NCBI GenBank assembly: GCA_035457005.1
Contig: DATICB010000011.1
Span: forward strand, 4,098-68,097
From: Patescibacteria group bacterium
GTDB taxonomy: Bacteria; Patescibacteriota; Microgenomatia; Levybacterales; UBA12049
Direction of reading: 5' to 3'
DNA: 64,000 bases
Shown here one piece after another: positions 19,462-56,539 of this stretch (positions within the stretch are counted from its first letter, which is position 1; every line of letters starts with the position of its first letter). The position numbers and the translations under genes were made by a program. The notes beneath the pieces were generated by a model. That model worked only from the letters and a program-made list of their open reading frames with translations, was not told where the DNA came from and did not search any database.

Positions 19462-19547
19462 TTTTGCTTCAAACCTCAATTGTTTTCTTTATTACTATAC
19501 CTCTCTTGACTTCTTGAAATGATTATGAGTACGCTGATTGTAGAGAA

Positions 19548-19799
19548 ATGTATTTTGTATACGTTCTACAAAGTATGAAGGATGATAATTTTTATACAGG
19601 TTTTTCAGACAATTTGAAAAGAAGATTGAGCAAGCATAATACAGGTCTTGTCACTGCTACAAAACATAGACTTCCATTAAAACTTATTTACTACGAATTT
19701 TGTCTCAACAAAACAGATGCACTCCATAGGGAGATCTACTTAAAAACATCTTGGGGTAAAAAATACATTAAAAACAGATTATCAAATTATCTCATGTAG
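19548..19799 (+). CDS. GIY-YIG nuclease-family mini-protein
   Basis: YFVYVLQS...FYTGFSDNLKRRLSKHN GIY-YIG core; 83 aa. Confidence 0.75.
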   Translation: MYFVYVLQSMKDDNFYTGFSDNLKRRLSKHNTGLVTATKHRLPLKLIYYEFCLNKTDALHREIYLKTSWGKKYIKNRLSNYLM

Positions 19800-19818
19800 T
19801 TTTGCGCTGATTGATAAG

Positions 19819-19881
19819 GCCACAGTTGGATAGATGCAATCATCCAACGTGGCTCCGTTAGATGCAAAGCTATCTAACGGA
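19819..19881 (+). promoter_or_regulatory. Two consecutive hairpins in the leader of the DUF378 gene; the second 3' arm abuts/overlaps the Shine-Dalgarno sequence
   Basis: gccacagttggat...atccaacgtggc and tccgttagat-gcaaagct-atctaacgga, then GGAGGGGG and ATG at 19896. Confidence 0.4.
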
Positions 19882-19895
19882 GGGGGTGATTACTA

Positions 19896-34272: not shown

Positions 34273-34291
34273 TTTTGCGCGCCCGGAGGGA
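34273..34291 (-). repeat. Degenerate partial copy (16 of 18 nt) of the 3' end of tRNA-Arg(TCT)
   Basis: gcgcgcccggagggattcc here versus gcgctcccggagggactcg at 34660-34678. Confidence 0.5.
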
Positions 34292-34307
34292 TTCCCTTCG
34301 GTTCATT

Positions 34308-34628
34308 TCATTCACTCAGGGTAAACTTCTCATCTCTCATGAGAGCTTCAACAAACTCAGTGCAAGTATTAATTCCAAGTATACCATCTATTAACATTTG
34401 TTTCTTTGCGTGACTCCAGCCTTTTAATTGTTGTTCTCTCTTTGCTGCTTGGTACTTATTAACGTACTTTTCTGCATACTTAAATCTAAGATCAGAAAAT
34501 TTTTTTGTGAACAAAGATTTTTTATTTTTGTGTTTTTTAAACCGTGGAATAATATCATCTGTTATCCCAACATAAAACATTTTCTGATCGCAAAGAAGAA
34601 TGTAAGTAAACCAAGCAGAACGACTCAT
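34308..34628 (-). CDS. GIY-YIG nuclease-family mini-protein
   Basis: WFTYILLCDQKMFYVGITDDIIPRFKKH GIY-YIG core. Confidence 0.7.
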   Translation of the reverse strand: MSRSAWFTYILLCDQKMFYVGITDDIIPRFKKHKNKKSLFTKKFSDLRFKYAEKYVNKYQAAKREQQLKGWSHAKKQMLIDGILGINTCTEFVEALMRDEKFTLSE

Positions 34629-34659
34629 TGTAATTGCTTGCACTGAGCTTGCCGAAGTG

Positions 34660-34733
34660 CGCTCCCGGAGGGACTCGAACCCCCGACCACATCGTTAGAA
34701 CCGATATGCTCTATCCAGCTGAGCTACGGGAGC
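34660..34733 (-). tRNA. tRNA-Arg (anticodon TCT)
   Basis: Acceptor gctcccg/cgggagc, anticodon loop guUCUaa, T-arm ggggg-ttcgagt-ccctc. Confidence 0.8.
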
Positions 34734-34809: not shown

Positions 34810-34894
34810 ACTTCGTCGTTTCACTCCTCAGTGTAAACACGTTTGACGCTAAGTATAAGTGCTTGCTACTTCCTTGTCAAAACAAGCGAATGTG

Positions 34895-34968
34895 TCGGGG
34901 ACAGAAGACTCGAACTTCCGACCTCACGGTCCCAAACCGCGCGCTCTAGCCAACTGAGCTAGTCCCCG
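34895..34968 (-). tRNA. tRNA-Pro (anticodon TGG)
   Basis: Acceptor cggggac/gtccccg, anticodon loop uuUGGga, discriminator A. Confidence 0.85.
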
Positions 34969-35243
34969 TTCTGCAAGGCAGAACTTATCTCTTTACCATA
35001 TTCTGCCAAAATTTTTCTTAATTTATATCCAACTCCTGATTTCAGGAATTTTTCTCTTTTGTCTGTACAAGTTTTACAATACAGTTGTTCAAAATACACA
35101 ATCTTCCAAGGTCTATACGCCTTTGTAAATTTTGATAGGCCACTATTGTGCTCCTTTAGTCTAACCTGAACACTTTTTATTGTTTGTCCAACGTACGTCT
35201 TATTTTTCTTTGTTAAACTTTGCAGGATGTATACTTTGTACAC
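34959..35243 (-). CDS. GIY-YIG nuclease-family mini-protein (its stop overlaps the 5' end of tRNA-Pro by 10 nt)
   Basis: YKVYILQSLTKKNKTYVGQTIKSVQVRLKEHN GIY-YIG core. Confidence 0.7.
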   Translation of the reverse strand: MYKVYILQSLTKKNKTYVGQTIKSVQVRLKEHNSGLSKFTKAYRPWKIVYFEQLYCKTCTDKREKFLKSGVGYKLRKILAEYGKEISSALQNGD

Positions 35244-35298
35244 ATCTATAGTTTAGCAAATCTTCCTCCTGAGAAAATTCTCCTCTGGAGAAGTGCCG

Positions 35299-35317
35299 AA
35301 GGAGGGAATCGGTCACA
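35299..35317 (-). repeat. Partial direct copy of the tRNA-Leu 3' end (T-loop/acceptor, gtgccgaaggagggaatcg)
   Basis: Identical 18-19 nt at 35439-35457 inside the intact tRNA-Leu. Confidence 0.55.
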
Positions 35318-35435
35318 ACTCGCCTTTGGCGGTCGCGACCCCGCCTCCTTCATCTTGCCTTCGGCAGATTCAGTCCGGCTTTCGATTCCACTGCTCTCAG
35401 CACGAATATTTCTGTCCAACAGACAAAAATATTCC

Positions 35436-35521
35436 TGGTGCCGAAGGAGGGAATCGAACCCACACGACATTGCTGTCAAGGGCTCTTAAGGCCCCCGTGT
35501 ATACCATTTCACCACTTCGGC
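35436..35521 (-). tRNA. tRNA-Leu (anticodon TAA), class II with long variable arm, CCA encoded
   Basis: Acceptor gccgaag/cttcggc, anticodon loop cuUAAga, long variable arm, 3' ...ggcacca. Confidence 0.8.
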
Positions 35522-53949: not shown

Positions 53950-54201
53950 TTATAAACCATTAATCAAAGCTTCTTTTTTGCTTTTAGGCAATTGTTTTAT
54001 TTCCCATTCGCGCTTTAAAGCTTCACTTTTTGTTGCACATTCCTCTGTATACACAAGTGCAAAACTATTAAATGCTTTTAAATATTTTGCTGATTCATAA
54101 TTTTTCTTTCTGTGCTGAGTTAGTCTTTTTTCCAAATCATTTGTTTGACCCGTGTAGAGCGTATTTGCAGATGTCCGAAGAATATAGACAGTATATGTCA
54201 T
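53950..54201 (-). CDS. GIY-YIG nuclease-family mini-protein
   Basis: TYTVYILRTSANTLYTGQTNDLEKRLTQH core. Confidence 0.7.
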   Translation of the reverse strand: MTYTVYILRTSANTLYTGQTNDLEKRLTQHRKKNYESAKYLKAFNSFALVYTEECATKSEALKREWEIKQLPKSKKEALINGL

Positions 54202-54235
54202 ATACTCAGTATACAACTACTACAACCACAATTGA

Positions 54236-55966: not shown

Positions 55967-56072
55967 ATTTTTAGTATGAGAAACTACTGCTGTTGTGTCA
56001 ATGAGCAGAGGAGAAAGATAAACGGTCCAAAAGGCAGACTAGAGATATTCTGCTTAATTCATTTTTTCTGTG

Positions 56073-56143
56073 CTGGAAGGCCTGGATTCGAACCAGAATA
56101 AACAGATCCAAAGTCTGTTGTCCTACCATTAGACGACCTTCCA
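56073..56143 (-). tRNA. tRNA-Gln (anticodon TTG), U1:A72, G73
   Basis: Acceptor uggaagg/ccuucca, anticodon loop cuUUGga, T-arm ctgg-ttcgaat-ccag. Confidence 0.8.
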
Positions 56144-56147
56144 ATAT

Positions 56148-56390
56148 TTAATCTTTTAACAACACCTTAAGTTTATTACCACCTTTATATGATTTCAATT
56201 CTATTTCCCTTAATCGCGCTTTTTTATAATTTTCAAACTCTTCTGTATAAACGAGAGAAAATGGCTTTCTCTTTTTCGTAATTGAAACTCCACCCTTATT
56301 GTGTTTCTTTAAACGGTTCTGAATATCTTTAGTTATTCCGATATAATAACCATTGTCTAATTTGCTTTGGATTACATAAACCCAAATCAT
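56148..56390 (-). CDS. GIY-YIG nuclease-family mini-protein, 4 nt from the tRNA-Gln 5' end
   Basis: IWVYVIQSKLDNGYYIGITKDIQNRLKKHN core. Confidence 0.7.
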   Translation of the reverse strand: MIWVYVIQSKLDNGYYIGITKDIQNRLKKHNKGGVSITKKRKPFSLVYTEEFENYKKARLREIELKSYKGGNKLKVLLKD

Positions 56391-56397
56391 ACAAAAA

Positions 56398-56470
56398 AGT
56401 CTGTTGTCCTATTTACTCCGCTTAGCGGAGCCATTACCCCGCTCAGCGGGGCGAGGACGACCTTCCAATA
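56398..56470 (-). repeat. Degenerate copy of the 5' half of tRNA-Gln; the D-loop is replaced by a 45-nt insert with two GC hairpins
   Basis: aagtctgttgtcct...gacgaccttccaata matches 56111-56146; insert ctccgcttagcggag / ccccgctcagcgggg. Confidence 0.55.
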
Positions 56471-56539
56471 GAATAAATTGAACAGATATCTTGTGAATTT
56501 TACAACCTAGACTATCTTTCCAACGTGGCATTATTATAC

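Follow-up and report, generated by a model that had tools for sequence, protein, structure and literature searches.

A minimal GIY-YIG nuclease gene between a hairpin-bearing half-tRNA and an intact tRNA-Gln in a Patescibacteria genome: a probable copy of a widespread selfish cassette

A 64-kb stretch of the genome of a Patescibacteria group bacterium (contig DATICB010000011.1, positions 4,098 to 68,097; hereafter, the window) contains an intact tRNA-Gln(UUG) gene that is preceded, on the same strand, by a small open reading frame (ORF) for a GIY-YIG protein and, further upstream, by a broken copy of the 5′ part of the same tRNA (hereafter, the pseudo-half) that carries two GC-rich hairpins. 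The question raised by this locus is what kind of unit it represents and how a nuclease gene, an intact tRNA and a fragment of the same tRNA came to stand together. Comparison with related loci makes it probable that this locus is an instance of a selfish, homing-endonuclease-like cassette of wide distribution, composed of a minimal GIY-YIG nuclease gene and a complete tRNA. All coordinates of the locus are read on the minus strand; sites between adjacent tRNA positions are written as 12/13 and so forth. From high to low coordinates, the features of the locus are as follows.

56470-56497, minus strand: weak match to a σ70-like promoter, TTCACA-16-TATTCT (9/12 matches), adjoining the pseudo-half.
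56456-56470, minus strand: pseudo-tRNA block A, 15 nucleotides (nt), an exact repeat of 56132-56146.
56437-56455, minus strand: GC-hairpin unit 1, 19 nt, ctcg followed by CCCCGC-tga-GCGGGG, inserted at the D-stem/D-loop junction, 12/13.
56431-56436, minus strand: retained D-loop nucleotides taatgg between the two hairpin units, recognized by a deletion test that restores identity to the tRNA.
56412-56430, minus strand: GC-hairpin unit 2, 19 nt, CTCCGC-taa-GCGGAG with a TAAA tail, inserted in the D-loop of the pseudo-half.
56396-56411, minus strand: pseudo-tRNA block B, 16 nt, an exact repeat of 56110-56125.
56391-56395, minus strand: junction tttgt, 5 nt, from the pseudo-half to the ATG; identity to the tRNA stops here, in the anticodon loop.
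56148-56390, minus strand: GIY-YIG ORF of 80 amino acids (aa), consisting of the domain only, of the UPF0213 / prokaryotic Slx1-like type (Pfam PF01541).
56144-56147, minus strand: spacer atat, 4 nt, from the ORF stop codon to tRNA position 1.
56072/3-56143, minus strand: intact tRNA-Gln(UUG), called by ARAGORN and by Rfam RF00005 (62.5 bits).
56016-56032, minus strand: ttttggaccgtttatct, a weak candidate for a decayed remnant of the broken tRNA (anticodon loop and 3′ part), downstream of the intact tRNA.

Block A comprises three leader nucleotides and tRNA positions 1-12 (acceptor 5′ strand, positions 8-9 and D-stem 5′ strand), and block B comprises positions 19-34 (D-stem 3′ strand, anticodon-stem 5′ strand and CUUU), its CUUU end lying in the anticodon loop and taking in the first two anticodon bases. 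The two blocks are colinear, exact direct repeats of tRNA-Gln. Local alignment of the tRNA 5′ half with the upstream 150 nt gave a score of 32, which was reached by 0 of 500 shuffles. When both 19-nt units are removed, a 37-nt string is left that is identical at 37/37 positions to 56110-56146 (tRNA positions −3 to 34). It thus follows that the hairpins are clean insertions into an otherwise perfect duplicate. Chance repeats are ruled out by this identity and by the shuffles. The hairpins themselves, CCCCGCtgaGCGGGG at 56437-56451 in unit 1 and CTCCGCtaaGCGGAG at 56416-56430 in unit 2, are both perfect, with a 6-bp stem and a 3-nt loop, and no other hairpin of their type is present within the window. 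Folding of the leader is far more stable than that of shuffled sequences (z = −3.9 and −4.6). An Rfam search at E ≤ 1 revealed no intron, ribozyme or family besides tRNA in the region, and likewise only tRNA in 12 related loci.

The order proposed by a sequence-only reading of the window, i.e., pseudo-half, GIY-YIG ORF, 4 nt and complete tRNA-Gln, is borne out by ARAGORN, Rfam, Pfam and the repeats, and the comparison it called for between the tRNA and its upstream region yields two exact colinear repeats, of 15 and 16 nt. Its two perfect GC hairpins are also present as described; the insert is 44 nt between the repeats instead of the 45 nt given, and the D-loop was not replaced, since taatgg survives between the hairpins.

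The tRNA-Gln at 56072-56143 is the tRNA member of the ORF-plus-tRNA cassette. A promoter scan of the locus was not significant as a whole (4 sites vs. 2.3 expected from shuffles); the match at 56470-56497 is a possible leftover of the original tRNA promoter that may now drive the pseudo-half, the ORF and the tRNA.

The 80-aa protein matches Pfam PF01541 with 58.8 bits (cut-off 22.6; E = 6.9e-16) over residues 2-70. A second Pfam match, T5orf172, overlaps the first one, and the Pfam search retrieved no further domain, a C-terminal NUMOD or helix-turn-helix DNA-binding domain included. Nor is a DDE, Y1, serine or similar transposase domain present in the element, where GIY-YIG stands alone. Across 22 homologues, the catalytic residues Y16, R26, H30 and E62 are invariant and Y5 is conserved in at least 90%. 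The annotation of a Patescibacteria metagenome-assembled genome (MAG) includes a protein that is 100% identical. When a profile of the family was compared with PDB, the matches were 1zg2 (UPF0213 protein BH0048; E = 1.5e-14), 1ywl (EF2693; 7.8e-11) and, weakly, SLX1 (1.7e-4); all 7/7 matches at E ≤ 0.01 were UPF0213 or SLX1. By sequence similarity, the protein is placed in the GIY-YIG superfamily and, within it, in the UPF0213/Slx1-like group. Dunin-Horkawicz et al. (PMC1564403) describe prokaryotic Slx1-like proteins as having a minimal GIY-YIG domain without auxiliary domains; their sole tRNA-related remark on this group concerns a fusion to a TrmH-like tRNA methyltransferase. Members of the UPF0213, or “GIY-YIG nuclease family protein”, group are widely annotated and have no assigned function.

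All examined closer homologues of the window ORF (49-73% identity) adjoin tRNA-Gln, and their neighbouring genes differ. Three loci whose proteins are 62-68% identical (L001, L005 and L007) were fetched with their flanks. In each of them tRNA-Gln(UUG) lies within 0-6 nt of the ORF, the flanking genes are entirely unlike those of the window, and the ATG is immediately preceded by the acceptor and D-stem 5′ strands, a CCCCGC hairpin and then “aggaca...”. Over the relatives as a group, the ORF and the tRNA are spaced by 0-20 nt or overlap (by 15 nt in L005). A pseudo-half with a hairpin at 12/13 is common to nine loci (the window, L001, L005, L007, L009, L010, L098, L100 and L110). In L100, the two-hairpin version of the window recurs, with the equivalent of unit 2 at the same place; the pseudo-half and hairpins of this locus are perfect, and its ORF is frameshifted. 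In L098, the hairpin units are nested. The pseudo-half blocks track the acceptor stems of the local tRNAs (tggaagg, tgcggga, tgtcgag, tgccgag, tgctgga and tgggaga), L007 being the one exception. Nesting on a larger scale is seen in L001 (2640-3505), where a pseudo-half of positions 1-11, with a palindrome at 7/8, comes first and a second GIY-YIG ORF that lacks a canonical start codon (2678-2938) comes next, then a pseudo-half of positions 1-37 with a D-loop hairpin, the ORF, the intact tRNA-Gln and a 3′ remnant that carries a ca. 95-nt insertion in the T-loop.

Two further tRNA-Gln loci, L150 and L151, contain a more distant GIY-YIG protein (37-49% identity) and other hairpins at D-loop site 21/22. 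These are TCGCC-tcatc-GGCGA and CCTGCC-gaaga-GGCAGG in L150, where the pair is repeated on both sides of the ORF-plus-tRNA cassette, and GCGCC-gttg-GGCGC in L151.

To see how far this design extends, we turn to a scan of one genome per GTDB species with protein patterns only, which returned 80 loci; the statistics given here refer to 82 non-redundant loci. The hosts belong to many classes of Patescibacteria, to Bacteroidota, Omnitrophota, Lentisphaeria, Ignavibacteria and Dehalococcoidales. A same-strand tRNA adjoins the ORF in 66/82 loci and an opposite-strand one in 0/82; counting every tRNA in the 82 loci, 127/129 are co-oriented with the ORF. Forty-two loci, in which the tRNA lies just downstream of the ORF, could be tested for half-copies (z ≥ 4 for a 5′-half copy). 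In 37/42 the tRNA 5′ half has a copy upstream of the ORF, and in 13/42 the 3′ half has one downstream of the tRNA; the reverse layout, with the 5′-half copy downstream, was found in 4/42. GC palindromes lie beside the ORF in 71/82 loci, at a density of 3.08 per kb vs. 0.17 per kb in the flanks, an 18-fold enrichment. Generic genome-wide repeats were considered as a source of the hairpins and rejected, given this enrichment and the fact that the window contains only these two. An assembly artefact was likewise set aside, as the same design recurs across many independent assemblies.

The palindrome stems are overwhelmingly YCCCGC, and the consensus of the hairpin unit is approximately CTTG-YCCCGC(C)-N3-5-(G)GCGGGR-TRAA(G). 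The loop varies in length from 3 to 5 nt; TAAA(G) often closes the unit, and the orientation of this tail is constant relative to the ORF. Exact tRNA blocks and palindrome units together make up the mosaic pseudo-tRNAs, the units being located between blocks at 8/9, 11/12, 12/13, 16/17, 19/20 or 21/22, or in place of the anticodon arm. The tRNA partners of the ORF are Gln, Pro, Ser, Glu, Tyr, Gly, Lys, Ala, Thr, Val and Asp. The nearest-neighbour protein has the same tRNA partner in 37/54 cases, vs. 9.7 expected from permutation, and one palindrome type, CCCGAC...GTCGGG, goes with one protein clade (L031, L085, L046 and L038). In Bacteroidota the order is intact tRNA-Pro, ORF, and then a pseudo-tRNA-Pro with the D-arm replaced by a palindrome, often in tandem. 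The longest example is L064 (2385-5166, on a 4.2-Mb contig of a Chitinophagaceae MAG), in which an intact tRNA-Pro(GGG) is followed by at least eight identical 347-bp units, each with a GIY-YIG ORF and a pseudo-tRNA-Pro that has CCCCGCC-gtg-GCGGGG in place of the D-arm; shorter arrays are present in L013, L012, L045, L050 and L063. Some hairpin-bearing pseudo-tRNA-Pro copies are called as tRNAs by ARAGORN or Rfam.

Which part of such a locus behaves as a unit is indicated by palindromes that are split in two. In L062, L072 and L113 (Gln) and in L043 and L068 (Ala), a split palindrome encloses the ORF together with the intact tRNA. In three of these (L062, L113 and L043), it lies in the D-loop or the anticodon loop (36/37) of a pseudo-tRNA that is of full length and resumes downstream with its 3′ part. 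A palindrome bracket around the tRNA alone, without the ORF, is present in L118/L152, L120/L135 and L131. The 3′ part of the broken tRNA is found downstream of the intact one in L001, L005, L007, L062, L113, L043 and L150, and the acceptor stem differs between the broken copy and the intact tRNA in L007, L062 and L120. Short direct repeats, AAATT(T), are present at the inner edges in L062, L072 and L113.

At sequence level, the cassette proteins are of 80-110 aa with the catalytic domain only, and the 3′ end of their gene adjoins a complete same-strand tRNA. The cassette lies within or beside a second, disrupted and pseudogenized copy of this tRNA, of which the window keeps the 5′ part (positions 1-34) directly upstream of the ATG, and the GC hairpin units belong to the same element family and are placed at loops or stem-loop junctions of the disrupted copy. 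The earlier proposal of an insertion into a tRNA followed by a duplication that restored the gene needs to be recast: a patchily distributed, insertion-type element tied to a tRNA gene, a duplicated tRNA segment and a retained intact tRNA all stand, and the restoring duplication is better described as an ORF that travels with a complete tRNA. The hairpins are no random filler, since they form a palindrome unit that is conserved, goes with the element and recurs in different phyla and with different tRNAs; nor is the layout the outcome of a single local event, as it recurs in nine loci whose proteins are 49-73% identical to that of the window.

If the cassette is mobile, related tRNA-Gln genes should be found both with and without it. 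A first scan of metagenomes with the 5′ 40 nt of the window's own tRNA-Gln gave 0 matches, this lineage-specific acceptor stem not being in the collection. A scan with the 34-nt tRNA-Gln core returned 71 loci, among which GIY-YIG adjoins tRNA-Gln in six distinct ones; in one of the six, L100, it has decayed. Ordinary promoter-like leaders and no ORF are present in about 37 distinct loci that have the identical 34-nt core and enough upstream sequence; several ORF-less loci keep remnants of a pseudo-half. L120/L135 shares with the window the upstream PEBP gene (52% identity) and has a pseudo-half and a palindrome-bracketed tRNA without an ORF. In L121 the shared gene is the downstream, dihydrofolate-reductase-like one (63% identity), and neither an ORF nor a recognizable pseudo-half is present. 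The presence/absence comparison that the sequence-only reading had suggested thus comes out in favour of mobility, with the reservation that no allele with both window flanks was found. Patchy presence, the L100 frameshift, the ORF-less remnants, the nesting in L001 and the tandem arrays in L064 together point to a cycle of gain, decay and loss, which is the pattern expected of a selfish endonuclease gene.

In the window, the ca. 330-bp insert contains the GIY-YIG ORF alone, with no integrase or other recombinase in or near it, and its neighbours, the PEBP and TspO genes, are cellular. Exact-protein look-ups of the GIY-YIG, PEBP and TspO proteins of the window matched no contigs. Some of the ORF-less loci have peculiarities of their own. 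In L137/L138, tandem copies of tRNA positions 1-18, each with its own inverted repeat (cgtctaatgg...ccattagacg), lie upstream of tRNA-Gln, and in L114 the D-loop of the pseudo-half carries a non-GC insert. Among the Patescibacteria tRNA-Gln(UUG) genes with the identical 34-nt core (L089-L159), there are at least 13 different acceptor 5′ strands, including TGGGAGA, TGCGGGA, TTCGGGA, TGCCCGG, TACCGGG, TGGGGGA and TGTCGAG. Such variability is unusual, the acceptor stem often being an identity element.

The window contains five GIY-YIG ORFs in total, and all of them match PF01541.

19548-19799, plus strand: GIY-YIG ORF, 83 aa.
34308-34643, minus strand: GIY-YIG ORF, 111 aa.
34959-35243, minus strand: GIY-YIG ORF, 94 aa.
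53950-54216, minus strand: GIY-YIG ORF, 88 aa.
56148-56390, minus strand: the 80-aa GIY-YIG ORF described above.

Their mutual identity is 32-44%, and they are therefore old paralogues, not recent copies. The NCBIfam models for group I intron endonuclease and UvrC matched two of the window paralogues only, below the cut-off.

The 111-aa ORF lies in a region (34276-34733, minus strand) that begins with tRNA-Arg(UCU) (34659-34733), from which it is separated by 15 nt; past the ORF, at 34276-34294, there is a 19-nt copy of the tRNA-Arg 3′ end (17/19 identical). This order of tRNA, ORF and 3′ fragment is indeed the mirror of the tRNA-Gln layout, as had been proposed from the sequence. Directly past the tRNA 3′ end, a motif CTTCGGCA(A/G)GCTCAGTG(C/T)A is present in the window (34630-34656), where it forms the 5′ leader of the 111-aa ORF, in L007 (3455-3477) and in L121 (downstream of tRNA-Gln). 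These are three unrelated Patescibacteria loci, and in L121 the motif occurs twice in tandem; it may represent the end of another type of element. In the adjacent region (34894-35521, minus strand), the 94-aa ORF extends into tRNA-Pro(UGG), where the TAG at tRNA positions 8-10 serves as its stop codon; the junction is the same in the Bacteroidota Pro-type elements. Upstream of this ORF, at ca. 35293-35366, lies a miniature pseudo-tRNA-Leu with the acceptor 5′ strand gccgaagg, a GC palindrome-like core and a copy of the tRNA-Leu 3′ end, which is exact over 19 nt (35293-35311 = 35438-35456). The 83-aa ORF (region 19530-19885, plus strand) has no tRNA nearby. A 9-nt direct repeat, CGCTGATTG, lies on either side of it (19533-41 and 19805-13; 13/16 identical over a longer stretch), and two AT-richer hairpins follow at ca. 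19822-19880; the ORF looks like an insertion with target duplication in a typA/bipA-like intergenic region. The 88-aa ORF has no adjoining tRNA in the window. Its homologues in other Patescibacteria (42-57% identity; L112, L113/L142, L129 and L136) lie 13-230 nt downstream of tRNA-Gln, which suggests that a second GIY-YIG lineage favours the 3′ side of this tRNA.

How could a cassette of this kind spread? By analogy with the phage nuclease SegB, the protein would break the DNA of tRNA genes, and homologous repair against a cassette-bearing copy would spread, or tandemly duplicate, the ORF and the tRNA. The intact tRNA would keep the host viable, and the resident copy would decay and gather hairpin units of the element. 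Expression of the nuclease may be held low by co-transcription from the tRNA promoter, by the structured 5′ leader and by tRNA 5′ processing after the stop codon; RNase P processing of tRNA-Gln would cut the mRNA 4 nt past the ORF stop codon. Because the protein is without a DNA-binding domain, its targeting is probably guided by structure, i.e., by hairpins or loops of tRNA-gene DNA or by GC palindromes, or else would involve recognition of the palindrome by a dimer; the placement of insertions at loops and junctions, the variable length of the hairpin loops and the kinship to SLX1 suggest structure-guided recognition. The hairpins may serve as inverted ends, as a site of insertion or recognition, to break up repeats or as regulatory RNA. 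A bolder version of this scheme, possible though doubtful, is that of an unrecognized class of cellular mobile elements, in which the Slx1-like nuclease would read folded GC hairpins and the natural loops of tRNA-gene DNA rather than a sequence bound by a separate domain, insert a cassette of ORF and replacement tRNA into the D- or anticodon loop of the resident tRNA gene and leave or seed miniature hairpins, the host becoming dependent on the element's tRNA (gene-replacement addiction).

Several observations weigh against a selfish cassette that spreads in this way. A split palindrome was sought around the window cassette and not found, and the candidate remnant at 56016-56032 is not significant, its local alignment score of 18 being matched by 10/500 shuffles. 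The intact tRNA has the same sequence as the presumed target, and simple self-avoidance is not accounted for. Blastn comparison of the flanks of ORF-bearing and ORF-less loci gave no pair with both flanks in common, and synteny at the protein level is one-sided. Recent transposition inside this genome was considered and rejected, the paralogues being 32-44% identical to one another. A scan of 2.9 million viral contigs confirmed no relative. Finally, the pseudo-half fits the lineage-specific acceptor strand of the local tRNA in 9/10 Gln-type loci, a fit better explained if the two have long resided together and evolved in concert, or if the pseudo-half is under selection, than if the cassette often hopped across lineages. 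The same position of the D-loop hairpin in diverged loci implies that the pseudo-half is inherited with the cassette and not remade at each insertion, and this inheritance, together with the co-variation of the pseudo-half with the local tRNA, keeps a cis-regulatory explanation in contention.

According to that explanation, which we consider quite unlikely, the pseudo-half and its hairpins are a vertically inherited, cis-acting RNA leader, a tRNA-like 5′ untranslated region that might govern how the nuclease mRNA is translated, how stable it is or how the co-transcribed tRNA-Gln is processed, by pairing with the tRNA 3′ half or by binding the GIY-YIG protein. The architecture has been kept while the proteins diverged to 49-73% identity, the blocks are identical to the local tRNA in spite of its lineage-specific acceptor stem, the fold is far more stable than shuffles, the TAAA tails keep one orientation to the ORF, and for T4 segB the passages of PMC2330249 on this gene propose control by a 5′ hairpin and by tRNA processing. 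However, most related tRNA-Gln genes manage without such a leader, the pseudo-half and hairpins of L100 are perfect although its ORF has decayed, and hairpins are also present in 3′ remnants, far from any ATG. A single leader function also fits poorly with pseudo-copies that lie upstream of the ORF in Patescibacteria and downstream of it in Bacteroidota, and identity to the tRNA is indistinguishable from complementarity to the tRNA 3′ half. A somewhat unlikely alternative, which overlaps with the selfish cassette and puts transposition or insertion in the place of classical homing, is a structure-guided mobile element whose palindrome halves are inverted ends or an insertion site and whose Slx1-like nuclease cuts hairpin loops, including those of the D, anticodon and T hairpins of tRNA genes; solo hairpins would then be footprints or derivatives resembling miniature inverted-repeat transposable elements (MITEs). 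It would account for the split palindromes around ORF-plus-tRNA cassettes (five loci) and around cassettes with the tRNA alone (three distinct loci), for the AAATT(T) repeats at the inner edges in L062, L072 and L113, and for hairpin units that are clean, confined to loops and junctions and sometimes nested (L098) or paired in tandem. Loops of 3-5 nt suit a folded hairpin better than a rigid dimer site, the palindrome type co-varies with the protein clade, and the family is kin to the structure-specific SLX1 nucleases. Yet an 80-aa nuclease of this sort has no known strand-transfer activity, palindrome halves are missing from the cassette boundaries in the window and in most Gln-type loci, a consistent target-site duplication is not seen, and the loops of solo hairpins differ from what simple interior deletion would be expected to leave.

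Two further explanations take the tRNA repeats themselves as their starting point. The direct repeats of tRNA segments that flank the insert resemble attachment (att) sites, and unequal crossing-over alone could yield the tandem arrays, as would suit a leftover integrative element, or a small circle that entered by Campbell-type integration, with the recombinase encoded elsewhere and GIY-YIG as cargo. This is very improbable: the 330-bp insert has no integrase or recombinase in or near it, GIY-YIG is the sole protein common to 82 loci from several phyla, repeat lengths and break points differ among loci, and the tRNA is always co-oriented with the ORF and adjoins it. Improbable in the extreme is a split or intron-containing tRNA, with the upstream half as an exon spliced to a 3′ half and the ORF as an intron-encoded endonuclease. 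The break is in the anticodon loop, near the classical intron position, and the hairpin units are clean loop insertions, as in archaeal multi-intron tRNAs; but a complete, normal tRNA-Gln follows the ORF, the Rfam search at E ≤ 1 shows no intron or ribozyme, almost nothing is left of the broken copy's 3′ part in the window, and in Bacteroidota the hairpin replaces the D-arm, so that its excision would not restore a tRNA. An intron or ribozyme was accordingly rejected, being contradicted by the intact tRNA and the tRNA-only Rfam result.

If the selfish-cassette reading is true, the UPF0213 group gains a role as a selfish, tRNA-associated nuclease, and the SegB principle, i.e., nuclease-driven spread and amplification of tRNA genes, extends from phages to the chromosomes of Patescibacteria, Bacteroidota and others. 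The cassettes would also be a source of the tRNA pseudogenes, half-tRNAs and tandem tRNA arrays that confuse tRNA annotation in MAGs. The YCCCGC hairpin would be a defined candidate ligand for target finding by an 80-aa nuclease without a binding domain, and a selfish element that supplies, as cargo, a tRNA in place of the disrupted resident gene would have an unusual route to indispensability.

Among known systems, the elements that integrate into tRNA genes are similar in that they insert in or beside a tRNA, have a direct tRNA repeat at both ends (here of 15 and 16 nt) and keep an intact tRNA; the cassette differs from them in having no integrase, a size of ca. 330 bp, duplication of the 5′ half or the whole tRNA instead of the 3′ end, and variable break points. 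The mobile GC clusters of yeast mitochondrial DNA and bacterial repetitive extragenic palindromic (REP) and MITE palindromes are likewise short, GC-rich, clean insertions in AT-rich DNA that occur singly, in tandem or nested. Unlike these, the hairpins described here are confined to pseudo-tRNAs beside one gene family, with which they co-vary, and some of them bracket the cassette. The group I introns of tRNA genes and the multi-intron or split tRNAs of archaea share with it interruption of the anticodon loop and small structured insertions in the D-, anticodon and T-loops, whereas here there is no ribozyme, an intact tRNA stands beside the broken one, and the broken copies are decayed. The element belongs neither to the integrase elements nor to the group I introns, and it does not appear to be a classical transposon. 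By sequence, its protein belongs to the same family as UPF0213, YhbQ and prokaryotic Slx1-like proteins (PDB 1zg2 and 1ywl) and shares their minimal domain. The literature searched did not tie UPF0213-type genes to tRNA genes, pseudo-tRNAs or mobility, which is no proof of novelty, and gave nothing on hairpin-studded pseudo-tRNAs or split-palindrome cassettes.

The closest parallel is offered by SegB. As the SegB passages of PMC2330249 describe it, this GIY-YIG nuclease is encoded in the T4 tRNA cluster, recognizes the TψC motif, cleaves tRNA genes and spreads with flanking tRNA genes; segB adjoins tRNA-Arg, maturation of which cuts between the last codon and the stop codon of segB, and has a stable, sequestering 5′ hairpin. 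In the SegB passages of PMC13096335, SegB drives UvsX/UvsY-dependent tandem amplification of segB together with tRNA-Tyr, a process that depends on homologous recombination, and segB-type genes are statistically tied to tRNAs across many phages, with no isotype preference. The passages on SegB in these two papers make no mention of hairpin-studded pseudo-tRNAs or split-palindrome cassettes. With SegB of T4/T6 as these sources portray it, the cassettes share a same-strand ORF adjoining a tRNA, tandem arrays and a patchy distribution. They differ from it in several respects. SegB is there an I-TevI-like two-domain protein with a C-terminal NUMOD3, whereas the cassette proteins, of 80-110 aa, have the catalytic domain only and come from the UPF0213/Slx1 lineage; the cassettes reside in cellular chromosomes of Patescibacteria, Bacteroidota, Omnitrophota and others instead of phages; and their protein clades follow particular tRNA identities. 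Having no DNA-binding domain and not being phage-borne, the element resembles a SegB-type free-standing homing endonuclease gene and stands outside that family. It is thus, apparently, an undescribed cellular counterpart of the tRNA-targeting homing nucleases of phages.

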